From the sequence record SRR20825019_2818: a DNA stretch of 34,705 nucleotides. One strand, given 5' to 3'. Both the position numbers and the translations under genes were made by a program. This document shows positions 1,065-31,150 of this stretch, one piece after another. How positions within the stretch are numbered: position 1 is the stretch's first letter; each line of letters opens with the position of its first letter. Below the pieces are notes generated by a model. That model ran no database searches. It saw only the letters and a program-made list of their open reading frames with translations, and was not told the origin of the DNA.

Positions 1065-2104
1065 TCATCCATAGAATGACGGAACTTGCAACGAGATCCC
1101 ACTATCCCGGACGCTTAACCCTAGCAAGAATGGGATAGCTTGCTCTGCCCAGTCCTCCGGGGCCTGGAAACTATTTATACAAGAGATCTTTAGCCATACC
1201 ACTACCTAGTTACAACCCACAACTTACTGGTCAGCTAAGTCATGGGCGTCCGCATTCACACGAAGCATGTCGGTGTTGATGTGCATCCCAGGAACGACAG
1301 GAACTGCCGCCATGTTAGAGGGTAGCTCTGATGATAACTCATTAGGTGAAGTGCACACAAATTGCAACAAAGCCAAGATCACCTGCTGCCAGAGACTTGG
1401 TCATTCCTTCAATGGCCCACTTCGAAGCACTGTAGGCCCCAACGTTACTCGCTGCAACTCGACCTGCGTGCCGGTCCCTCTAAGTTATATTGTGGCACGA
1501 TCGACACCATCACTACACACCGAAAGTACTGGAAAAGTTAATCACAACACCCTTGTTGACTTCCACCATGGGAGGGACGAAATGACGAATCACATTCGCT
1601 ACTCCAGCCACGTTCACATCCATAACTCTGTCGAACTTGGCCACAGTCAATACTGGCACTATTATAGCTCCACCTTACAATACCTCCTTGGCAGATATTT
1701 CCCAAAGCGGCTTCTCCGGGTTAATGACAGCAGCCTGCAAGTATGCAGATTAGCAGGGCACTGCAACTACCATTCGCACGCACATTGTTGATAACATAGT
1801 CCGGAGTCCTTCCATCAGATAAGAGAAGAGTTTCTGCTGCCCACTCCTTCACCTGGTCATTCTTGGTGACGTCTACGCACTTCGCAAGAGTCAGCACACC
1901 TGTAGAACACAAAAGACTTCTCCAACTGGGTCATACCGCAAAATTGTGAGGGCCTGGATATTCTTTCGCCAAGTCAGAGAGCATGCTGGTGTTCAATCCA
2001 CAGCCGTAAACAATGTGACCACGCTTGGCCAATCCATGAGTCATAGCCAGGCCGAGGCCACGAGTACATCCCGTGAGGACGACTAGTTTCTGCCTTAGTG
2101 ACAT
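1065..2104 (-). CDS. Short-chain dehydrogenase/reductase resembling NADPH-dependent pterin aldehyde reductase (folate salvage; At1g10310-like); 7 exons
   Basis: Hand-spliced over 6 GT-AG introns: MSLRQKLVVLTGCTRGLGLAM (TGxxxGxG), PDYVINNAAVIN, FDRVMDVNVAGVANVIRHFVPPM, GVVINFSSTFGR, AYSASKWAIEGMTKSLA (YxxxK), HFQAPEDWAEQA, stop TGA at 1065-1067. Largely missed by the ORF track because of the introns. Confidence 0.85.
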
Positions 2105-2159
2105 TTTGTTTCGTTGTCGGAAATGGGGTGCAACCTGTATTTCAGTAGGTACATGAGTG

Positions 2160-3500
2160 CAACTGGAGCACTGGGGGAGGGTGGGCCACAGCAGTCTTGG
2201 TCAAACGGCTCGCGGTATGCTGGGGGCTCTGTGTCGGCCGGCACTGGGGGTCCGGGGAACTCCCCGGCCGGGCAGGCGCGGACGGATCAATTCAGACGAA
2301 TCAGGATGCCGGGCCCGGGTCGCCGCGCGCGCGCGGGGGGGGTGCCGGTCAGTGGACTGGACTGGGGGCCGTCCCCGACCGCCGCCCCACGTCCGGCCCC
2401 GTTGGGGGACCGGGCCGTCCACCGGGACTGACTGGGTGCCGGCAGCGGGCGCCGGGGGCCTGGCCGCGGCGGCCGAGCCGGAGCAGCCCGGGCCGGGGCC
2501 CTGCGGGCTCGGCCACCCCCGCCCCCGGCTGCGGGCCGGCCGGGGCCACGGCCGGGCGGGTCAGTGGGGCCGGCGGCCCCCCGGGGCGCAGTGAGCTGGC
2601 GGCCCCACTGGCCACCGCGACCCACTGGCAACTGACTTCCCGCACTCGCAGCGCCGCGGGCGGTCGCCCCGGTCCGCTGACCGTGTGAGCCAGGCACCGG
2701 CTCGGGTCAGGCTTACTAGCCGCTGACTTGGGCCGGGGAGGGCGTCCGGGGCGGTCCGTGCCGCCCGGGCGCGGCCCGGCGGCCCAACCAACCTTCAGCC
2801 CAGGCGGGCCCAGCGGCCGGCCCGGGCCTCGGCCTCGTCACGTTGGCTCTGCCGCACTCGGCACTGCTGGTATACCGCCTCGGAACCAGGCACTGACTGC
2901 TGAGCCGTCGTGGTAGGCCTCCTCGGCAGAGATGACGGGGGCGCGGAGGAGAGCACGAAGTGGATACAGGAATAGCGGTAGGGGCGGGGCCGGGGCAGCC
3001 GTCGGGGCCCGGCCGAGCCCGCGGCCCGCGCGCCGCGGGCCCGACTCGAGTCGCGGGGCTCATCAGGGAGGCTGCCGGAATTGATGAGGCCGGGGAGGGC
3101 GACCGGACGGCGGGGATCGACGGAGGCGGTGGGCGTGCGGCGGGGCGGGGGCGCGCCGCCGGGCCTCGGCTCGCTCGACCGCCGGCCCGGGGGCGGGTCG
3201 GTCGGGCCGCCGGCCCCCGCGGCCGTCGAGTCGGAGTCAGTGGCCAGGCCGGACGGCCCGCGGCCGGGCCGGGCCCCGCCCGCGGCGGCCGCCGCGGCCC
3301 CGCGGGTCGGATCCACGCCGTCAACTCCGCTCCGAAGCGGGCACGACCCCGAGGCAGCCAGCGGCCTGCGGCGGCGGGGCGGTGGTTGCACTGGCCGGGG
3401 CCCGCCGGCCGGTTGGTAACTGCACTGGTGCAGCAGGTTCGGTCCTGACTTTGGACAGAGTGCGTCCGTCCTTCAGCGCCTGAGTTTTGCACTGCTGCCT
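2160..3500. promoter_or_regulatory. GC-rich spacer / putative bidirectional promoter between divergent genes
   Basis: Very GC-rich, dense in CCGG/GGCC/CGCG; lies between the SDR ATG (2104, -) and the next gene's ATG (about 3606, +). Confidence 0.5.
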
Positions 3501-17748: not shown

Positions 17749-18909
17749 TTATCTTGTGGAAGCACCGTTTTTCTTCTGCTGAACCTCTTCGACAGTGAGA
17801 GGGAGATAGTAAATGGGCGGCTTGGTCGTTGTTTTCCTAAACAGCTCATCTAGAGACACAACCTTGCGACTGGGTTCTGCAGGCTGTGCGACCGGTCGAT
17901 TACCCGTTCCTGACGAAGTCCCACCACCTCCGGCGCGCCTCCGCTCCTCTACACTTCGTAAAACAGCTTCCCGTGCCCGCTGCTCCGCTGAAATGTTGCC
18001 CTCCTTATGTTCCTCCAGTTTCTCTCGAGTGGTAAACTCTGGAAGTAGTCTACGGCCGGTCCGCTCAGGCCACTTCAAATCAAACAACCCTACCCTCGCC
18101 TTTTCAGCCTCGCTTGGCGATGCAAACCTAACGATGCAATGCGACTTAATTTGGTTAAGCCACATATCCTCTACACTACCGTAACTTCCAAGCAGTTCCT
18201 TCAACTGGCCATTCGTGAATGGGCGCACAAAGTTGACGACCGACAGGGCATCCGTCCACTTGCCCTCCTCAACTTCCGGCGCGGCTTTGCGCTCTTCCTC
18301 TCCTGCTCCGCTGTTTCTGTTGCTCCATTTCCCCCTCTTGTTCTCTTCATAGTTGTCGCCATTGGAGTCACGCCCCCGCTTAAGGCCCCGATCTTGACGA
18401 CCAGTATCCATTTCACGATCAACTGCTGAAACCTTCGGTCGTGACGGGGCGGCTTCCTTCTCCTTTTCATGCTTGTCCTTGTTCACATCAGACTCTTTCT
18501 GGTCCTCTGGTGAACTATCATCCTCATAGTCGATCTCGTCCTTGCCTTCGTCAATGAGAGAAACGAGAGGCATTTCGGCATCAACAACAGGCTTATTCGC
18601 TGCTTTCTTTGCAGGACTCTCATCTGCCTTCTTGACTGGGCTTGCTTTCTTTATACTGGCAGCCTTATTAGCTGGACTGGCGGTATTCTTGGCTGCAACT
18701 GAAGGGCTGGCGGCGGCGTCCTCCTTATCCTTAGTTTTATCTTGGTCATCGCCTCCGGAAGTTTGCCTTTCTTTTGACTCAATATCCTCCTTCAAACGAT
18801 TATAAAGATCATTCTTCAAACCGCTGGTATCTAGACCCCTTCTTGTTAGTTCCGCTTTCAGTTCCGCGACTTTCAATTTGCTAGCATCCTTCACGGATAG
18901 CTCTGTCAT
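17749..18909 (-). CDS. ACIN1: Acinus-like ASAP/EJC-associated splicing factor (SAP + RRM + RSB motif), intronless
   Basis: SAP: SKLKVAELKAELTRRGLDTSGLKNDLYNRL. RRM: VVNFVRPFTNGQLKELL...WLNQIKSHCIV. RSB motif: SLDELFRKTTTKPPIYYLPLT. Confidence 0.9.
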   Translation of the reverse strand: MTELSVKDASKLKVAELKAELTRRGLDTSGLKNDLYNRLKEDIESKERQTSGGDDQDKTKDKEDAAASPSVAAKNTASPANKAASIKKASPVKKADESPAKKAANKPVVDAEMPLVSLIDEGKDEIDYEDDSSPEDQKESDVNKDKHEKEKEAAPSRPKVSAVDREMDTGRQDRGLKRGRDSNGDNYEENKRGKWSNRNSGAGEEERKAAPEVEEGKWTDALSVVNFVRPFTNGQLKELLGSYGSVEDMWLNQIKSHCIVRFASPSEAEKARVGLFDLKWPERTGRRLLPEFTTREKLEEHKEGNISAEQRAREAVLRSVEERRRAGGGGTSSGTGNRPVAQPAEPSRKVVSLDELFRKTTTKPPIYYLPLTVEEVQQKKNGASTR

Positions 18910-19079
18910 ACTGAAGCGCGAGATATAGTATTGCTACGGAGATATGCAGTTATATCATACTCTAGCTTCAACTGCGCATTTTTGATTTTGCTAGTCACAC
19001 AAGGCGGAAGGCTGACGAGTGTGAGTTTAATCCGTAAAACAAACCTGACAGGAAGGCTGTTGGCTTGCGGCCACTAGAC

Positions 19080-19960
19080 AAATAGTACACCGCTGCTGGC
19101 AGCGGCCGAGCATCCCATTGAGCTGGCCGCCGACTTGGGCACAACTTTCGCCCAACCTAACCCTGCCGGCCGGGTGTCGGCCGCGGCTGGCATCTCAGCC
19201 TGGGAGTGAGTTGACTCGCCGTCCGGCGTTTGGCGCCGGTCACACGGTCTCCCCGGCGGCACCACGCCCAGCCGGTCTCGGTGCGGCCTGCCCGGCTGCG
19301 GGCGGGCGCCCCGACCGGGGACTGAGGTGGTGCCCGGCTCCGGTTGCAAGTCGCCGCCGGGCCGGCCGCGGCGGGCAGCCGGACCGCCCGGGAAGCGCAG
19401 GGCCGCCCGAGGCGGCCGCGGGCGCGCGGGCCGCTGCGCTCACCTCGCCGGCCGGGCGGCCGGGCCGGCCGGGGCGCGCCGCCCCCGGAAGGACGCGGCA
19501 GGGTCTGCGGGGGCCGGGCCACCAATGCCGGCCGCCGCTGGCGTCTGGGTTTGGCGTCAGCGTTCCTCCCGGAACCTCCCCTTCCTCGTTCCCCTTCCCT
19601 TGAGGTCTTCGAGCTGCTTCTTATCGCTTTGTGTGGATTTGAGGTTATATTGAGAGCGTTCCGATTCGAGGAGGGGCCATGGTTATGATGGTCGGCATCT
19701 TGTCTCTGTTTCGCTGTGGAGGTGCACGGACTGGACCTCCTCGACCTCCTCGTGATTCGGCAACCACGGCACTCAGCAGTGCTAGCGGCCCGGCTCGGAC
19801 GGCGAAGGCTGAACCGTGCCGGCACGCGCCCATACCCCTTGACCACCTAGGCGGCGGCAACGGGCCCGGCGCGGCTGGACAATGAGCTGAGCGGTCGTGG
19901 GGCCCGTCTGTGGGCACGCAGGCCGACCCGCAAAGGCCGTGGCACCGCAATCACTTCGGA
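19080..19960. promoter_or_regulatory. GC-rich spacer / putative bidirectional promoter (Acinus and lectin)
   Basis: GC-rich stretch between divergent ATGs at 18909 (-) and 20024 (+). Confidence 0.45.
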
Positions 19961-20023
19961 AGGATCCTTGCATCACTTTAATTATATCTTTTTTTAACTC
20001 CGAGTGAGGGTCAAGGCAATACC

Positions 20024-21864
20024 ATGGCTGGCAAGTACTTAGCAGGCGCAGTACTGGTCGCTGTCTTGGTGGCAGCTGTTGCTGGACGAGAAGACGTACC
20101 TCTCACTGATCACTCTTTCTATCCTCCTTTCAAGACAGGCACGGGGAGGGCGGATATTCCGAACTGGAACTACGGATTTGACTCAGTCTTGAGTAGGGAC
20201 GCGCTCACTCTTACCCCTCCTTTCGAGGAGAAACTAGGCTTCGTGTATAATGAGAAACCGGTGAAGAACTTGCACTGGGCTGTTGAGATTCAATTTTCTG
20301 TGTCAGGAAGCACAGAAATCACAGACTCAGAGGGTCTCGCCTTTTGGTATGTAGATCAACCGCACAAGATTGTGGCTAGCTCCAACGAGACTCGCGGTTA
20401 CTTTTCCGGCATCGGTGTTTTCTTCGATACATTTGACGACCACCTCCAGATCAACAACTCTTTCGTTTGGACAATGACGAACGATGGCACAAAGGAGTAC
20501 GGCCATCAGCACGCAGAGTACGACGATGAGGATGAGCCAGCAGCCTGCATAATGGACTTCCGTAACCGTCCATTGGTAACTGCTCGTATTTCCTATGTGG
20601 ACCGAACCTTGCAGGTTTCTCTCGATCTTGAGAGCAATGATGACTTCACAAACTGCTTCACTATCCATGATATTGACCTTCCGCGTGGTTTGCACTACGG
20701 CTTGTCTTCATCAACTGGTAAATTTGAGGATAGCTATAGCTTATATAGCTTCAGAACTTTCGAGCGAAGCGGGACTGACAGGGATGCTGATGTGGCTCCT
20801 GGCCACCATCTCCAAGGTGCTATTGAGCCACCCCATATTTCCTCTGTCAAGGAGATTACAAAGCCTCTTGAAGTCGAGATTGAACAGCTCAAGGATGAGG
20901 TGAACCGGCTCCAGGCTGAATTGAGCAGTGCACGCCACGATAAGCACTCTTTGGAGATGCAATTGCAAGAAGAGAAGACTAGACGGGTTAGTTCGTTGAA
21001 TGTATCATATATTTGTATGAAATCTCACAATATGTGCTTTTTAGGCCCACCTCGAGAAGACCGCTGACTTGCACAGGGCAGAGGGTTCCAGTGAAGGAGG
21101 AGATTCTAGCACTATAGTCAAGCAGTTGGAATCACTGTTGAACACTCACTTGGAGAAAGACTTAGAGAACCAACGTGCAAGGTGCGGAACAAGGCCTCTC
21201 TTGGGTGCTTAGGGTCAACTGACTGTGGTATTTTCCAGCATGGATGCTTACGAGCGGGTTTTCAAGTATGAGGAAGAGCTGGATGCGAAAAGGCGCAACT
21301 TCCAGGACGAGGCCACACGCAGCCTGTCGACGTTGCATCAAGAGCTGCGCGAGACTCATGAGATGATCAATCATATCGCGAAGAATTTGGGTAATGCCGT
21401 AGAGAATGTTGGTAGCGGGAATGGTGGTGGTGGTGGCCATCATATCAAGAGTCTGGAGGATAAGTTGATGGCCAAATTGCTGAAGCACACAGAGCACCTA
21501 AATGTCCTACAGTAAGTTGTCAGAAGTGCTAGTACCGTACGGCTTGGGTGCTCATGCGTGCCGCAGTGATACCGTATCCGACATTAAGCACGCCAAGGGT
21601 GGGTCCTTGCCACCTATGGGACCTCAATTGGAGGAGTTCCAGAAGGAGTTTAAGCAAATGAAGGAACACGTGGAACGGTCCAAGAAGCAACAGGAAGAGC
21701 TGGCGGATACTGTCAGAGTCTCGCACCAGAAGATCAGCGAGTCTATTGAGACCCACGGTCGCATTGGGTTCTGGACATACTTTCTATTTATCCAGGTGGC
21801 GTTTGGACTTGGCTATATTTTCTACGCTAAGTACAGGGAGGAGAAGAAGTCCCATCTGTTCTAA
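20024..21864 (+). CDS. L-type lectin cargo receptor (ERGIC-53/LMAN1/VIP36-like), type I membrane protein; 4 exons
   Basis: Signal peptide MAGKYLAGAVLVAVLVAAVAG; lectin motifs LTLTP, GLAFWY, FSGIGVFFDTFD, CIMDFRN, LPRGLHYGLSSSTG; long coiled-coil stalk; TM FWTYFLFIQVAFGLGYIFY; short tail KYREEKKSHLF*. Confidence 0.85.
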
Positions 21865-21955
21865 GTGTGTTGGGGTGTTGACTAGAAAATCAATACAACA
21901 TGCTAATTCACAACCCGTTGTATGTTGTATATTCACTTAATGTTTATCCGCTTCT

Positions 21956-24900
21956 TTAACACGAAGTGGGCCTGTTACCTCCGCCAGGCAAGAACCTTTC
22001 ACTAGTTGCTTCGGGGTTTGATGATGACGATTCCACCGATAATCCACGATAAGGACCCATCGTACCTGATGCTCCGGGAAGTGCCCGAGATTCTCCGATG
22101 GGTGTAGTTCCCTCAGACTCGGGAAGGCCGCCGGCACCTCCCGTGTCCGTAGACTGATTACCCAAGTTAGCACTCTCCATTGCAATCTTCAGATCACGCA
22201 ACGACGACATCTTCCTCGAATTACTAAGGGCATTCACATTTGTCGCAGTTGTTGTTCCCGTACTACTTCCATTAGATTCCCTTGACATCTGGCGGCTCGA
22301 TGCCAACGGAGACTTAATCTCAGCATTCTGGTCAGCCAAAGCCTTCCATTGCTTCGCATTCTCCTCGCTGATCTCAACATACTCTTGGAACAATGGAATG
22401 GCGTTCGCAAGCTTCTCCCACATAGAGTGCAGGAATCGATTGAACTTGAATTGCCCCAGTGCAACGTTGACATCGGCCTCGCTGTACCGATCGAATCCCG
22501 GATCAATTGCAAGGCCCCCCTCCCTTTCAAAGTCACCTTGCTTGAAGAACTCAGCGCTGACTCTCCAAGCCCATTCCTTCGCAATGGGAAACGGTTTCAC
22601 CAAATTCGATACATCGCTGGCTTTTAGAAGCATATTCAAGAGAATTTGCTGATTTTCTTCGGTACCGAGAGGACTGTCCACCAACTTCACTTTCCCGCTA
22701 ATTACCTCCTTCAATTCTGGTACTATTTGCTCAAACATTTGCATGTGACTATTATGTCCTGATGCAAAATCAGTAGCAAGAATCATCTGCTTCACCTGCT
22801 TCAGCACGATTGCGCGAGTATCAGCATCCATATTCTCCAATATGTTGCTCGAAGAATGGGAAAGCAGCCGGAAGGTTTCAACAACGTGCATTTCCTCAAG
22901 GTATGACGTCGAAGAGTAGGCAAAGATCAAAGGAGTGCAGGCCTTCCGCTGATAATTGTTATTTTGACCAGGGTGATTCAGATCATGACAGAGACTAGCA
23001 ATCATTAGTGCCAACACACTGTGAGGCCACAGACAGCTCAGCAGGGAAAGGTCACGAAGAAAGAGGAATGTAGTGTGGGTGATATCTATGGAATGTTCGC
23101 AGTTATGGTAGGGATTATCGTTGTAACACTTAAACACATTTGTAACAAAAGTGTCAAACTTGGCATTATCTGCAAGAAAGGCCTCTCAGCAACCAAGTAA
23201 CAATCACCATGAGTTTCGAAAACACTCACCAATCTTAAACTGGTCCAGGAGGTTCAGATACCTGAACATGCTCACTATCATCACATGTTGTTGAATTGTC
23301 GAATAGTCCCACACCGGAATCGCGCCCTCAATAAAGCTGGTCATCCAGTGAGCTTCCCCTTCCGGCACTTGCGGTACATGATGGCGCTGCACATTCTTGA
23401 AACCATGCGCTGAGCTGGTCAGAAGGCCATTCTCTTCCACATTCATGCACTTGTGTGTTTCAGGATTGCAAGTTGAATTGACTACCGATTCGTACTTGAC
23501 GTGAGGCTTCCCCCGCAAGCTATAAGCCATAACTTTTCCCTTTCCCTTGATGTCTATTTCTTCGTATTGCTCAGTCTCGAACATCCTTTGCACTCGAACT
23601 CTCAGCTGCAAGTGTACCATTAGAATCAGCACGTCCCAACCACAGTCATGCCACCAACCTCCTCTGAGACCAAAATTGTGCCAGGGGTTGACTTGGACTC
23701 AAGCACCGAAGCAATATTGACCGCATCTCCCCAACAATCATATGCGAGCCTTCCCCTCCCGACAATCCCAGATGCCATTGCCCCCTCGGCAATCCCAAAC
23801 CGGGCTTGTATGACTTCCCCATACAACAACTTCGTTGACTGCGCACCTAGGCGTAAGGAAATGCAATCGCACTACACGAAACCACCATACCTTCTCATTT
23901 AACCTGCTATTCATTTCCAGCGCCATCAAACACATCCTTAACGGATGGCAGTAGTCATCATGCGCCAGTCCGCCCACAGCCATAAAACAGTCTCCCACTG
24001 TCTTGATCTTCTCGATATCATACCGACTTGCAACATCGCTGAACACTTCGAATACATCATTCAACATGAGCAATACAGTCTGCGGAGAGTGCTTGCGAAG
24101 CAATCCAGTGAAGTTCACGATGTCGGCAAAGAGAACAGTAACATCTACGGCTTGTCAACAACGCAGTTTCACATGAACACATGCAACTCACTTGGATGGG
24201 TCCTTGCCACAATTTCCCCGGGGTCATCAACGACTTGATCAATAAGTCTCGTGGGAATAATGCTTGACAAGAGCTCAGTAGTCTTGTTCTTTTCAGCTGC
24301 AAGTTTTGTTGAAAGACTGATGTTCAGCTCACTCTCGTGCTCCAATCTGTGAAATAACATAAGGTTCCAAAGTCTAGACAACTTCAGCATTTCTTACTTG
24401 ATGCATTGAAGCTTTTCATTTTCCCGAATAGAAGCGTTCTCTGCCTTGTCTCTCAACCAGCCAATAGCATAAGCACAAGAGTGCATCACAGGTTCCAAGA
24501 AAGACACATCCGCTTCGGTGAACTCGCGTTCACAGTTGACTAAAGCCGCCATTCCAACAAGCTCCCCCTTGCAGTAAAACGGGAAACCCAAGTATCTCCT
24601 GACTTCCGGATGGTGGGGGGGAAGACTGCCGAAGTTGGGGTCGTTCGGTGCGTCGTTTGTAAGGAGAACCTTGCCCGTTTTCAAAGTGTACCCATACAAC
24701 GTATCCAACTTAGTCATGACAAACCCATTCAGGAAGCTATTGTTATAGACTGCTTCGGACTCTTCATCCCATGATATATTCGAGACACAAAACGTCCGAA
24801 TATAATTCTGAACAGTCCCAGTCTTCTTCGGGTCGCCCCTTTTAATCTCGCCGATCCACCCAACTAAAACAGACACATCAGCCCATATTCATGTTCACGA

Positions 24901-25374
24901 CACCTTGAACTTACACTCGCACTTCATCAAAGCTAGAAGATTTCCAAGCATATGCGAAAATATGTTATGTGGACTGTCATCATTGAGAATCAAAAACTGC
25001 ATCTCACAAAGAGCAGAAAAAAGGGCCAAGTTCTTCTTTGTGAGAACCTCAGTCTTGTAAGGTGACTTGGTGCTGCTACCCACTCGACCTCTTCGAAGAA
25101 CACTTTCCGAGTCCGCCGCCCGCACCTTCGGTTTCAACGGATACTTCAGGATAGTCTTGCTGTGCGAAGTGCCAAACTGGGGCAAAGAATGTTTAGGTTT
25201 GTTCTCAAGGGACCACCGCATCGGATCTGCTCCCTCAGCAACAAAATATGTCACTTCACTAGCAGGCTCGCAAGAAGCTGACCGAGTTTTCTGCATAGGA
25301 GGTGCATTCGAAATGTTTGGCAGAGGTCCAGGGGAATCACTGCCACTCGATTCGCCTGAATCAGTTGACGCCAT
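21956..25374 (-). CDS. GAF - class III adenylyl cyclase - class I cyclic nucleotide phosphodiesterase fusion protein (about 1034 aa; 7 exons)
   Basis: Six GT-AG introns (24864-24914, 24347-24397, 24145-24191, 23839-23890, 23606-23658, 23170-23229) give a 3105-nt CDS. GAF: EFGWIGE...LDTLYG...LPPHHPEVRRYLGFPF..GELVGMAALVN. Cyclase: VTVLFADIVNFT, EKIKTVGDCFM, YDCWGDAVNIAS, IKGKG. PDE: NPYHNCEH, LCHDLNHPG, ILATD, KASDVSN, EFFKQGD, LGQFKF. Confidence 0.9.
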
Positions 25375-26724
25375 ATTTCACTATCTTTCCAGGAACCTAT
25401 TGTTTTCACTCCAAGCTAAGCTTCCATATAAACACCGCCCTCTCTCTTTACTTGCTGTAACTGGCTATCACCCATACATAACGAGGGGCTGGACCGTCCA
25501 TGGGCAGGCATGGCAAAAACTTTAGAGACAAGGCGGTTGCGTTCATGAACCTCGTCGTGGTTGCGGCTTGTTGGCCTCAACCAGGTCCTGCTCTGCCAGC
25601 CAAGAATCTGTGATCAAAACGCGATTACGCTCCATCTACAGTCCATTGGTCATCGGGTGGGCGTCCGGTTGCGCAAGGCTCCGATCACTCAGAATAACGC
25701 CGGACACGTGGGGTGCCCCTCACAGTTTCCCCAGAGTGGGCTGGCTCGGTTTACGCCGACCATGGACGCCAGCCACCCGGTTGACGATCTGAATGGGCAG
25801 GGTTTTGTGGCCGCCCTCACACCGCAAAGACCCACGTTGCCGGGCTGGCCAGCCACTGGGGACCGTACATCACCCGATCGCCATCCAGTTGACAGGGGCC
25901 CAGGCTATCATCAATTGTCAATTGAGACATGAGCCAACCACTTACGGCCGCACTAACCTCGTGACCTTCCTCGCTCATGGAAACGAGATTCTTCTTCATC
26001 AACCTCAACAACCAAATACCGAATTGCCTACCCTCAACCATGGATATAACGAAGAATTCAAATCCCCCCAAAAATTGAGTGCCCCACACCAGGCTCCCAT
26101 GCGGGTCGCGTTCTTGCCTCTGATTTGATTGGATGAGTGGGCTTATCGTTCCGAGTCCACACAACCCTAATCAGCCGTGCACCGGCCGCCATGCCAGCGC
26201 CGGTGGTCCCGCCGAGGAGTCGGGTGGACGCGTGAGTGAGCAACTGCCACCGACGAGTCGGCCCCGCGGATCGTCCCCATCGCACCGTGCGCACCCTGCT
26301 CGGACTGATGAGAATCAGTGCCGAGGTGGCTCGTCTCCCACAACAGTACCTGCCGCACTGCTGCCAGCGTCGTCGCTCCTGACCGTCGTGGTTGTTGGCA
26401 GCTTCTGTACCACGTGGCTGCCGGCTCTCCTGGTCACACGGTTGCCGCGGTGCGCTCACTGCCACTAGCTTTCGCGCTGCCGCGCCTGGACTGGTCATCC
26501 CGACAGTATCGCCTCAGAGGTGGTCTCTGCCTTCACTCACGTGCGGTACAGTGCCGTTCAAACTCTAGTCAACTTCGGTGGACTGCCCTACTGGTACCAC
26601 ATTATTGGACAGGAGTGCCCACAGCATGATTTTGTTTCGCAACTATCTCACGCCATGAAAGCAGTTCATCGATATTTCTATTCAGTCGCTTTGACGAAGA
26701 GTATACAGTGAAGGTTGGGGATAT

Positions 26725-29136
26725 ATGGTGAAGCGGGCCGACAAACCGGGTAACGGGAAGGCCCGTCGCCAAGTGGCAGGCATTAGGCTCCCGGCGGCAT
26801 TCCATGCTGCCCTTGAGGTAGTCCATACCTCTCAGCAAGAAGGCGGCGAAGATGATATCGAAACACAGTTTGAGGGGGGTGCGGTTGGTTTTGAAGAAGA
26901 GGGCCCTAAAGTCGTGGAGGCTGATGGCTTAAATAATGTGGCGGGGGAGCCTCCCTCACAGACCGAACCAGAGCTGGACGGAGGCGAGGCGCCTGCAAAG
27001 AATGATTTCTATAGACAAAACGTGCAGCTATTCAAGTCTATCGAGGAGAAAATGAGGAAATCGAAACACTTTGACGAAAAAGCGGATGGGGCGCCCCCAT
27101 GGATTCGTGAGCAGTTGGGGGACTATGAGAACAGTATCGAAGCAGGTGCTGGACTAGTGAAGTCACCTGAAGAGATCGCGGCACTGAAAAAGGCGCGCGA
27201 TGAGGGGAAAGGAGGCAGTGAGGAAGTCAAGACCAACAAGAAAATGTCAATCAGTCAATACATGTAAGGGGTTTCTTTAAGTCTTTAGTCTTTATCTAAC
27301 TCTTTCCTTCAGGACTAACACTACCAAGACAAAAGTGCCCCCAGAGCAACAAGAGGCATGGCGGCGAAAGAAAGAAAGGGAAAAGAAAAGCGCGGAGCTC
27401 CATAAGCGGCACAAGGCTGCCAAGGAGAGGGAAAAGAAAGAGCAAAGAGAAAAGGCGCGGAAGGAGCGCGAGGACAAGAAGAAGAAGAAAGACATCACTG
27501 ATGATGCGGATGCCGTTGTGGGGAAGGTTCGGGAAGACGCTGAACAGAGGGAGGCTGACGAGAAGTTAACCATTGACAACCTCCCATCTGAAGTGACAAA
27601 GTCACTAAGTGTGAACTACTACAAGAAGATCAAGCAGAAGTCAAACTATGTGTTTGCGGTGGCATTTTTGGGGATTATTCTTTTAGTTGTTGAGGTAGGG
27701 ATGGCATATATGTCCCGTGTTTCATGATCCTGACTCCCTGATCTCAGCATGAACTGCTATGGCGGAACGATTTTAATCATAACATATATACATACGGATT
27801 GAAGACACTCATTAGCATCTCTACGCTGTGCTTGCTGATTTTGCAGGTATTCCATTACCGTGATATGGCGGCTCAAATGGTTCACATGAATCAATTGCCG
27901 CCTGGTTCACGGTTCTGGTCTTCACCATCACTGTTGCGCGAGTTCATCTTGGAAATGATCGCCCTGAGTTATCATATCCCCCCAGGTGTTGGGGACTTCA
28001 CATTCGAGGTTCGCGATGGTATCAAGTACCCATTCGACATATTTGGGCTTTTCATGTTTGTGCGCTTTTATTTATTTACTACTCTGGTTCGGAATTTCTC
28101 TGGAATCTTCACCCAGAATGCTGCCTTCTTTGGTTCATATACAAATGTGAAAATCACAACCTCGTTTGCGGTGAAGGCTTTCTTGAACAATAAGCCGTTC
28201 ACTATGCTTGTCCCTGCTTATGCGGTGTCCGTGTCTACGATTTCTTGGTGGATATATCTCTGCGAGCGCGGATATAACGATGGTATTGAGAACTACTGGG
28301 ATTGTATTTGGTTGACATTCATTACGATGATGACTGTGGGGTATGGTGATGTATCGCCCGTAACGGACTTTGGGAAGGTTGTAACATTCGGGTCGTCATT
28401 CACTGGTGTGATTCTTGTCGCTCTTATTACGGCTGTTGTGTTCAAGAATATTGAACTTTCACTTGATGAGCATCGAGTAACGGACATGTTGGAGCGAGCA
28501 AGCTATAATATTGCATTGCGAAAATCAGCCCAGAAGGTTATTAAGCGGGCATGGGATCACTATTATGTGCGTACCTCACGAGGAGGTAGGAGGTACAACC
28601 ATTGGATTATTGATAGAAAGCACATCAAACTGTATTCTGCGTTGAACACTTTCCGCAAGATGAAGCGCTCCAATCCATATACTGAGAAGTCTGATCTCAA
28701 GTCTCAAATGAATGTCATTTTGGAGGTGAAACGCAAACAGGATGACTTGTTGACGCGTATGAAAGAGCTTGAGAACAAGTTGAACAACATCGTAAAGGAA
28801 TTGGTTGGTGCTACGGAATTGACGGTGTTTTCGGCAACGGAACTACATGCCGATAAGACTGTCAGTGATCACAAGCTCATTCGGGAGGATGGTGTCAATA
28901 TCGACTTGGAGGGTAGCCGCGATGACCCCCCAAGCCGACCTTCTGGGCTGTTTGCTCCCCAGCATCCCAGGCGGGAATTTGATCCCATGGATGTACAAGC
29001 TAGTACAAGGAAAAACAACGACTTTGATATGGCCGGACTTCCAATCGAGGAGACGATGGAAAACCTTGGTGTGGTGGAGGCAGAGGGTGCCGCCAATGAC
29101 GCTGATCAGACGTTTGGTCCATCCTTGCCTCACTAG
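26725..29136 (+). CDS. SK/KCNN-type (small-conductance Ca2+-activated-like) potassium channel; 3 exons
   Basis: Introns 27264-27312 and 27695-27747; multiple TM segments; pore CIWLTFITMMTVGYGD; post-S6 IELSLDEHRVTDML...LRKSAQKVIKRAW resembles the KCNN calmodulin-binding domain, followed by a coiled coil. Confidence 0.85.
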
Positions 29137-29482: not shown

Positions 29483-30150
29483 TTACTTCCTCTTCTTCTT
29501 ACCCTTATGAGCTTGTGATGGCAGGTATTTGGGTGGGTCATTCAACATACGCAGGCCTAGCGTATCAATAACCCATCTGTAACGATCATAGTCGGAAGCC
29601 TTCAAATACGACATCAGGGCCCTACGATCGTGCACCATTCCCAATAACCCCCGCCTGGAATGCTTATCCTTATTGTGCACCTTCAAATGCTCATGCATGT
29701 AGGCAATTTTCTTTGTCAAAATTCCAACTGTGGAGACGTGAGCAAGACATGAAGATCCATGTCATGGTTTCAAAACATACTCTGCACTTCAGGCGACCCC
29801 GTATCGACCTCATGCCGGCGCATGGTCTTAATCACTTTGTCAATTTCCATCTTGTTTTTATCCATTTGGCTCCCGCTCTCCACCCGAAAAAGCCTTTCAA
29901 TATCGGGACTTACATTCTTGAAGTCCTCTGCAGTAAAATTACCCTTATAGTAAACCTCCTCAACTGAAAGAGTGCAATTAATAACTCTTCAAGACTGTCT
30001 AACGCAGAACGTACCCTGAGTCCGTTCTGTACTCATCAACCGAAGTCCTCCAAGACCCCAGGCTGGAACGAAGCTGTTTGCCCGAACAGAGCCTGCAGAT
30101 GCAGCCGTCCGTACCAGCCCACCCAACGACCGCAACATGACTCCACGCAT
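29483..30150 (-). CDS. MRPS15: Mitochondrial ribosomal protein uS15m; 3 exons
   Basis: Presequence-like MRGVMLRSLGGLVRTAASAGSVRANSF; S15 domain [56 protein letters not shown]...YRWVIDTLGLR. Confidence 0.9.
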
Positions 30151-30229
30151 ACCGGAAAATAGTCCAGCTCCGGACTGATATACAGAAACTCGTATGCAAC
30201 AGCTAGCCGGCTTCTGTTGGGTAAGTTAG

Positions 30230-30920
30230 AGATGCGCCCGGCCGGTTGCCCGTCGGTTGCTGGCGTGCCGCGGCGCCCGGCCGGCGGCCGGTGGCCCGGC
30301 GCCGGGGCGGCAATGGGTCCGGCCCGCAGCCGCAGGTTCACCAGAGGGTGCCTCTAGCCGTGGCCGCCCTTGTCCGTGGTCGGCGACGCCGGCAGACGGG
30401 GCGGCGGCGGGCGCGGGGCCGCCACTCCTACTGGCCCGCCCTGGCGCAGCCGCCCGCCCCGGACCAAGTCGTTGCCCAAGCCCGGGCGGGCCATCCGGCA
30501 GGAGTCCCGGGCACCGGGGCTCGCAACCGGCCGAGGCGGGCGCACCGGCGACGGGTCGGCCGCCCGCCGGCTGCCGTCGCCAGTCACTAGTTGTCACCAC
30601 CAGGGACGGAAGGCGCGGTGGCTCACCGGCTGCCAGACATCAAGTTCGATTGAGATGTTTGGATATCTGACACGTGACAATTACAAGCATGAGCCCTCCT
30701 CAAGTGGCGTCGGAAGTAATTTCTATTTTTAGCCGATAGGGTGTATTCTCAATGGGGCGCTGCACTGGAACTCCGCCGCAACGCCGTCAGTCCCCCACCC
30801 CACTTCAGTGACGCCGCCGCCCGGGCCCGGCGCGGGACGGATGTCAGATCGTCCCCTCGCCCGGCCCCTGCCCCCCGCCCCCCCGGCCGTCCCCGCCGTC
30901 GCCCAATGGCAATGAACTGC
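30230..30920. promoter_or_regulatory. GC-rich spacer / putative bidirectional promoter (uS15m and thiolase)
   Basis: GC-rich stretch between divergent ATGs at 30150 (-) and 31151 (+). Confidence 0.45.
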
Positions 30921-31150
30921 TCCCTTCATTGTCAGCTCAATTGATCCAGTGTCAGTCTGGTGAGTGCTGTCGGGCTTGCAAGGTTCCGTCGCGTCGTTTA
31001 ATCACCGAAGAGCCGTGAGTCAAGCCATACCACGCCCCTTGGTGAGGGCTTCACAGCTGGCCTGGGCTGGGCTCCAGTGGCACGGGTACACGTTAGTCGT
31101 CAATAGGGTTACAAGACTGTTTTTCAAACTTCAAGCTGTATATATAGCTC

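Follow-up and report, generated by a model that had tools for sequence, protein, structure and literature searches.

A GAF domain, a class III cyclase and a class I phosphodiesterase encoded by one spliced gene of a marine single-celled eukaryote

In the stretch of DNA analysed here (the whole 34,705 nucleotides of the sequence record SRR20825019_2818; hereafter the window), we found a minus-strand gene that encodes a GAF domain, a signalling helix, a class III nucleotide cyclase and a class I phosphodiesterase (PDE) on one polypeptide. As far as the assembled contigs show, this is one gene with one transcript, not two genes misjoined, and it is real and expressed. The host is a marine single-celled eukaryote. 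The PDE site is intact and fully equipped, while the cyclase has a valine in place of the transition-state arginine of class III cyclases. We hold the chances to be about even that the product works as a soluble dimer, in which the GAF domain sets a slow, adenylyl-type cyclase and a competent PDE is flexibly tethered to it, serving brief or local cyclic AMP (cAMP) signals.

The fusion gene runs from 25374 to 21956 on the minus strand and comprises seven exons, at the coordinates given by an earlier first-pass annotation made from the letters alone. The stop-to-stop frames between 21956 and 25377 form seven pieces, and all joins between them accommodate short, frame-keeping GT..AG introns. Joining the exons by script yielded 3105 bases with a single terminal stop, encoding 1034 residues. 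From the N- to the C-terminus, the protein consists of a portion without a named domain, the GAF domain, the signalling helix, the class III cyclase, the class I PDE and a low-complexity tail. The coding part of exon 1 (24915..25374) starts with the ATG at 25374, immediately 5' of which lies an in-frame stop, and encodes a Ser/Pro-rich N-terminus (residues 1-110) followed by the putative start of the GAF domain. Exon 2 (24398..24863) carries the GAF domain, with the Pfam-matched stretch at about 24463-24708, and exon 3 (24192..24346) a helical linker, which from its position would act as the cyclase transducer element. The first half of the cyclase, including the metal-binding Asp 368 and Asp 412 and the substrate-specifying Lys 408, is encoded in exon 4 (23891..24144), and the second part, including the substrate-specifying Asp 479 as well as Asn 486, in exon 5 (23659..23838). 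Exon 6 (23230..23605) covers the last ~35 residues of the cyclase, a linker of ~60 residues (541-600) and, at its end, some 30 residues with which the PDE homology region opens. Exon 7 (21956..23169) encodes the PDE catalytic domain, whose Pfam stretch ends near 22373, the tail (residues 906-1034; rich in Ser, Gly and Thr) and the stop. The six introns, all on the minus strand, are 51 (24864..24914), 51 (24347-24397), 47 (24145-24191), 52 (23839-23890), 53 (23606-23658) and 60 bases long (23170-23229).

Three public runs, referred to here as X1, X2 and X3, contain this stretch. In X2, one contig of 3240 bases (record 5) aligns to 21942..25449 in seven pieces with six joints, and represents the spliced transcript with its leader (25449-25375), the coding region (25374-21956) and a short 3' end. 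The joints omit 51, 51, 47, 52, 53 and 60 bases, all bordered by CT..AC on the plus strand (i.e., GT..AG for the gene), and the six introns derived from the sequence coincide exactly with all of them. Because five letters differ between the contig and the window, the former is not merely the window's own assembly. Both ends of the contig bear loose letters, which we take to be a template-switch adaptor at 25449, on the 5' side of the gene, and a transposase adaptor at 21942. As these letters are adaptor-like, the contig is complementary DNA (cDNA), not genomic DNA. The 75-base 5' leader contains an upstream reading frame of four codons, namely a start, two codons and a stop, at 25416-25427 on the minus strand.

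The other two runs cover the gene in part. X3, which shares its sample with X2, has a contig over 21935..23833 with two joints on the 3' side. Its end at 23833 lies five bases into exon 5 and is followed by ~22 loose letters, adaptor-like as those of X2 at 25449; it stems from truncation of the cDNA or else from a shorter form with an internal start. X1 is a marine metatranscriptome from a separate study. One of its contigs (193 bases) spans the 24346/24398 joint, and another (219 bases) begins at 23230 with eight loose letters that correspond to 23162-23169 of the window, that is, to the exon 6/7 junction. X1 contains a small share of the stretch (0.08; three contigs aligned), and gaps in X1 and X3 say nothing on absence. 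All these contigs are assemblies, from which RNA starts, ends and abundance are not provable.

The domain content was assigned by running Pfam on the seven stop-to-stop pieces with reporting at E <= 0.01. The piece 24394-24888 matched GAF_2 (E 2.3e-13) and GAF (E 4.6e-10), and the piece 24169-24393 weakly resembled the final 35 positions of HNOBA, which form the helix ahead of cyclase domains, at E 0.0067 and with 16.4 bits where Pfam's cut-off is 23.4. Guanylate_cyc (PF00211) was matched twice, by the piece 23738-24154 over profile positions 8-90 (E 6.3e-23) and by the piece 23626-23871 over positions 97-151 (E 9.2e-13). PDEase_I (PF00233) was matched by the piece 21956-23185 over positions 1-236 of 238 (E 3.7e-61). 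The remaining two of the seven pieces, the frames of exons 1 and 6, matched no Pfam family at this threshold. These matches and the spliced cDNA contig agree with the first-pass annotation, which had read one frame carrying the GAF domain, a helical linker, the class III cyclase and the class I PDE, and which had argued that two genes had not been misjoined; the single X2 contig over all seven exons bears out the latter point directly. A profile search found no second cyclase or PDE in the window.

The junction of the two enzymes deserves closer attention. A hidden Markov model (HMM) built from the collected cyclase domains matched the frame of exon 6 over profile positions 152-187 (E 7.5e-05), and 243 of 362 cyclase alignments reach residue 530 or beyond, exon 6 beginning at residue 506. 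From the other side, 155 of 171 PDE alignments begin before residue 631, where exons 6 and 7 meet; those of two fused relatives introduced below, P0029 and P0084, begin at residues 602 and 601 of the fusion protein. Since cyclase and PDE alignments both reach into exon 6, this exon contains parts of both enzymes. The annotation had made the same point about 23230-23605, and its boundaries proved exact. The linker of ~60 residues between the two domains includes three Pro, four Gly and five His, and its length varies among relatives (~32 residues in P0029). Both composition and variable length fit a tether better than a rigid relay. Hydropathy in 19-residue windows found no membrane segment in the fusion protein: values above 1.6 occurred only at starts 671-673, inside the PDE core. 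The protein is thus predicted to be soluble, as had been proposed from the lack of an obvious transmembrane segment.

The PDE domain was aligned residue by residue with PDE4C (E 1e-35) and PDE4D (E 1.4e-34). All His/Asp metal motifs (YHNxxH, HD and ASD) and the invariant substrate Gln are aligned opposite their PDE4 counterparts, just as the annotation had listed them. Among the solved structures, PDE4, PDE8A and the trypanosomal PDEB1 ranked ahead of PDE9 and PDE7. PDE4 and PDE8A, the top solved relatives, are cAMP-specific.

The cyclase domain is less complete. Alignments with AC8 and AC9, as well as an alignment of 357 cyclase domains, showed Asp 368, Lys 408, Asp 412, Asp 479 and Asn 486 to be present. 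Asp 368 and Asp 412 form the metal-binding pair, and Lys 408 and Asp 479 form a substrate-specifying pair of the adenine type, the pair of GTP enzymes being of the Glu/Cys type. The annotation had correctly identified both metal Asp and the adenine-selecting Lys and Asp (in the motifs EKIKT and YDCW), but it left the transition-state position unremarked. There, Val 490 (codon 23704..23706, minus strand) stands opposite the Arg of the C2 domain of AC9. The codon is covered by both the X2 and X3 contigs, and no difference from the genome is listed for it. Five of the six canonical residues are therefore kept: the Asn of the Asn-Arg pair is present and the Arg is replaced. Val 490 likely makes the cyclase slow or inactive, and the domain may be either a weak cyclase or a regulatory domain. 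Accordingly, of the proposal that a single polypeptide makes and destroys cAMP, the destroying half is fully equipped but the making half is uncertain. The closest cyclases among the collected sequences are of the cyanobacterial type, with up to 42% identity.

The Pfam match of the GAF domain is confined to the latter half of the profile; the part corresponding to the former half presumably lies at the end of exon 1. The NKFDE pattern, the mark of cyclic-nucleotide-binding GAF domains, was not found anywhere in the fusion protein by a pattern search. As this pattern is absent, the proposal of the annotation that the switch is sensor-gated goes further than the sequence supports. Matches to solved GAF domains are marginal: GAF-A of DevS (E 0.022), the GAF domain of an HD-GYP protein (E 0.024) and that of PDE10A (E 0.55). 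In the alignment with DevS GAF-A, a His of the window protein lies opposite a DevS His that we take to be the haem ligand; this is a lead, not evidence. It is attractive to speculate that a single GAF ligand reciprocally flips the soluble polypeptide between making and breaking cAMP, going beyond simple tethering, the sensor perhaps being a haem-type gas or redox GAF domain, albeit we regard this as quite unlikely. If it were the case, a haem-type reciprocal switch would be the eukaryotic cAMP counterpart of bacterial gas-sensing messenger switches.

We searched for relatives of the fusion gene in several ways. No orthologue was found by HMMER with the PDE exon against 1.84 billion representatives, which gave 10714 matches (E <= 0.001); identity in the 150 listed does not exceed 41%. 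A word-based protein search with the same exon, aimed at longer proteins, returned five matches (best 36% identity), none of the five with a cyclase. A metagenome scan reduced 139 pattern matches to four confirmed loci, all at 27-34% identity and none close. The cyclase HMM matched six of the 155 collected PDE relatives, namely P0029, P0062/P0405, P0084, P0116, P0120 and P0148. Searches with P0029, an MMETSP transcript with the order cyclase-PDE and a cut N-terminus, found PF00211 and PF00233 together in two of 120 and in one of 120 listed proteins, the latter being P0029 itself. The former search added two proteins, P0159 of the glaucophyte Cyanophora paradoxa (1417 residues) and P0216 (ENA), and the other listed matches are animal or cyanobacterial cyclases. 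A Protein Atlas cluster of 130 mostly diatom proteins, with PF00211 in 100% and PF00233 in 97% of its members, scored 0.84 and is a lead only.

The combinations of the two domains recovered in this way are diverse. P0159 of Cyanophora and P0062/P0405 of the ancyromonad Fabomonas tropica are both PAS-cyclase-PDE proteins. P0084 of the euglenid Entosiphon sulcatum has the order GAFs-PDE-GAF-cyclase, and P0148 the order PDE-ion channel-cyclase. In P0116 and P0120 the order is cyclase-AAA-PH-...-PDE; both are large proteins with soluble-adenylyl-cyclase-like N-termini (cyclase and AAA_16), a PH domain (and also C2 in P0116) and a C-terminal class I PDE, and theirs is a further, so far undescribed way of combining the two enzymes. 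Of the six canonical cyclase residues, Cyanophora P0159 keeps all six, P0029 the five that its cut sequence covers, the window protein five and Fabomonas two. The Fabomonas cyclase domain (about residues 599-762 of P0405) lacks both metal Asp, the Asn and the Arg, and the PDE of the same protein is intact (E about 1e-72). The former looks like a pseudo-cyclase that regulates the latter.

In FastTree phylogenies, one with 156 rows of PDE domains and one with 358 rows of cyclase domains, the two window domains form long terminal branches (1.03 and 1.81, respectively) that belong to no well-supported clade. Fused proteins are scattered in both trees (four changes for four rows and three for three), and, given the well-supported branches of the PDE tree, the other four fused proteins must have arisen at least twice. 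In the cyclase tree, the window domain pairs with Fabomonas P0062, a join that the program flags as a long-branch one. Independent assembly of the window gene, which the annotation had inferred, is therefore plausible, but the trees leave its domains unplaced and neither show nor exclude a common origin with the other fusions.

We propose that the fusion gene encodes a soluble, probably dimeric signalling enzyme. Its N-terminal GAF domain, not of the cyclic-nucleotide-binding type, would bind a small ligand, and the signal would reach an adenine-type class III cyclase by way of the helical transducer. The flexible linker would tether this cyclase to a class I PDE, which probably prefers cAMP. 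Synthesis and breakdown of cAMP would be co-located at a fixed 1:1 ratio, and the resulting signals would be short-lived or local. As the cyclase lacks the transition-state Arg, synthesis is expected to be slow unless the GAF domain activates the cyclase, and hydrolysis would dominate at rest. In favour of this reading, the order of GAF domain, helix and cyclase is that of known GAF-regulated cyclases, and Cyanophora P0159 combines the same domain order with all six cyclase residues. Furthermore, the retention of five catalytic residues would be odd if nucleotide and metal binding were unused.

Several observations weigh against an active cyclase or against the proposal as a whole. Besides the Val at position 490 itself, the Asn-Arg pair is described as highly conserved in mammalian adenylyl cyclase and as essential according to a paper cited in the accessible part of PMC4215837. 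Among the 357 aligned domains, absence of the Arg in the presence of both metal Asp and the Asn recurs only in P0164 and P0165 of Diphylleia, which have Lys there. The cyclase branch of the window protein is very long (1.81 changes per column, where the median is 0.091), and Fabomonas provides a precedent for a fusion in which the cyclase has decayed. The preference of the PDE for cAMP is a mild hint drawn from its relatives, and substrate preference is not reliably readable from sequence. Finally, the X3 contig, stopping in exon 5 with adaptor-like letters, makes a shorter transcript form possible.

The main alternative is that the protein is a GAF-regulated PDE in which a pseudo-cyclase, perhaps still binding ATP, serves as a module for dimerisation and signal relay between the GAF sensor and the PDE. 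Such a protein would only destroy cAMP, like the GAF-containing PDEs. The non-basic Val in both genome and cDNA, the long branch and the Fabomonas proteins, which pair an intact PDE with a cyclase lacking four of the six residues, all suit this alternative. Nevertheless, we consider it rather unlikely, as five of the six catalytic residues are kept, the two metal ligands and the two specificity residues among them, and as the stretch between cyclase and PDE looks flexible, not like a relay helix. A non-canonical transition-state residue is also compatible with activity: the available text of PMC4215837 describes an active cyclase in which Ala replaces the transition-state Asn.

The missing Arg could also be supplied by a partner cyclase subunit, giving a C1/C2-like heterodimer with one active site per dimer. 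Across the 357 aligned domains, the Arg position is occupied by Arg in 248, Lys in 52 and Val in 39, and most Arg-less domains are the complementing first (C1-type) halves of two-domain animal cyclases, such as the C1 half of mouse AC8. These halves, however, lack further residues too, whereas the window domain keeps the Lys, Asp and Asn that normally come from the partner, and the profile search of the window yielded no second cyclase gene. We judge a heterodimer to be very improbable. We give still less credence to separate products, that is, a PDE alone or half a cyclase plus PDE, made by an internal start or by processing with the full-length fusion as a minor form: the X3 contig, which covers only 21935-23833 and ends on presumed adaptor letters, would suit such products, but X2, from the same sample, has the full-length spliced contig with the same type of letters at 25449, the X3 contig breaks off within the cyclase domain rather than between domains, as it would in a truncated cDNA, and RNA starts cannot be set from contigs.

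Other features of the window are of interest for the identity of the host. Convergent to the fusion gene lies a gene for an ERGIC-53/VIP36-like lectin (19982-21883, plus strand; PF03388, E 1.3e-42), whose nearest clusters in Protein Atlas are of chordates (0.91). The X2 contig on the lectin side ends at 21883, 58 bases from the end of the fusion cDNA at 21942, so that the 3' ends of the two genes nearly touch. On the other side, a frame with a potassium-channel pore (27742-29136, plus strand; Ion_trans_2, E 1.4e-13) and a weak match to SK channels (E 4e-06, below the cut-off) lies ~2.4 kb upstream of the start of the fusion gene. An Acinus-like frame with SAP, RRM and RSB-motif matches occupies 17749-18933 on the minus strand. 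The Acinus-like, SK-like and chordate-like lectin neighbours may be taken as a weak hint of a holozoan-like protist. Three segments (2001-3000, 19001-20000 and 30001-31000) are islands of 67-73% G+C in a background of 45-58%, and no transfer RNA, Rfam family or tandem repeat was found in the window.

Combining synthesis and breakdown of a second messenger in one protein is a natural means of keeping its signals brief and local. In bacterial GGDEF-EAL proteins, a sensor is followed by a fused maker and breaker of cyclic di-GMP (c-di-GMP), of which one has often degenerated into a regulatory domain. The comparison with the window protein, which the annotation had also drawn, is an analogy only: these bacterial proteins use another messenger, c-di-GMP, and have unrelated folds. 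Even so, the cyclases of Cyanophora (six of six residues), the window (five of six) and Fabomonas (two of six) suggest a series in which the cyclase half drifts from enzyme to regulator, as in GGDEF-EAL proteins. A compact sensor-cyclase-PDE module may also interest builders of cAMP tools.

Regulation by an upstream GAF domain is familiar from enzymes with one of the two activities. The cyanobacterial CyaB1 and CyaB2 are GAF-regulated adenylyl cyclases (accessible part of PMC4411481). They and PDE2/5/6/10/11 resemble the window protein in having GAF domains upstream of a cyclic-nucleotide enzyme, but these domains bind cAMP or cGMP, and none of the proteins carries both enzymes. Closer in layout are the predicted proteins Cyanophora P0159 and Fabomonas P0405/P0062, with the same order of sensor, cyclase and PDE, and P0029, with cyclase followed by PDE; Pfam detected neither membrane nor channel families in these proteins. 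The sensor of the Cyanophora and Fabomonas proteins is a PAS domain and that of the window protein a GAF domain. The PDE domains of all these proteins are 31-38% identical to that of the window, and the trees do not unite them with it.

The fusion with the firmest biochemical footing is CAPE of Marchantia, in which, according to the accessible text of PMC5159850, a PDE is followed by two predicted membrane helices and then the adenylyl cyclase, and in which both activities were measured. CAPE also occurs in other streptophytes with motile sperm, and later work is reported in PMC8115329 and PMC11032487, as far as their available parts go. The first-pass annotation had described this layout correctly. 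Like the window protein, CAPE combines an adenylyl cyclase of class III with a PDE of class I on one chain, and the demonstration of both activities in CAPE proves that the two enzymes can each work within a single polypeptide. CAPE differs from the window protein in having the PDE N-terminal and the cyclase C-terminal, two membrane helices between them and no GAF domain, and in being confined to streptophytes. In the literature searched, it is the only eukaryotic cAMP/cGMP cyclase/PDE fusion that we found with biochemical tests.

CAPE, the fusion that the annotation had named, is not, however, the sole published eukaryotic fusion of the two enzymes. Moeys et al. (2016), in the part of their paper accessible to us, describe a diatom protein, induced by pheromone, in which two membrane spans precede a cyclase and a PDE, a combination that, to those authors' knowledge, is confined to diatoms. 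Bilcke et al. (2020) report eight induced diatom guanylyl cyclase/PDE (GC/PDE) genes and Basu et al. (2017) mention a Pseudo-nitzschia homologue, again in the available portions of these papers. As in the window gene, a class III cyclase precedes a class I PDE on one chain in a marine protist, and the published idea, tight control of a cyclic nucleotide, is common to both. The diatom proteins are nevertheless membrane receptors whose catalytic domains are preceded, on the N-terminal side, by two predicted spans and an extracellular stretch, whereas the window protein is predicted to be soluble. They have no GAF domain and are read as guanylyl cyclases, whereas the window protein is headed by a GAF domain and carries the Lys/Asp adenine pair. 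This comparison with the diatom proteins rests on their published description, for which the support in the accessible texts is expression data.

The novelty suggested for the fusion gene was thus overstated, as cyclase-then-PDE fusions have been published for diatoms, CAPE has been characterised and sensor-cyclase-PDE proteins are predicted in Cyanophora and Fabomonas. In the literature searched, only the CAPE and diatom GC/PDE fusions turned up, and no description of GAF-cyclase-PDE in this order was found; the sequence searches did not turn up a protein of this layout either. The principle of fusing the two enzymes is already established in CAPE and in diatoms; to it the window gene adds a soluble form with an N-terminal sensor and direct transcript evidence, whose solubility should ease expression and assay relative to the membrane-bound diatom and plant proteins.

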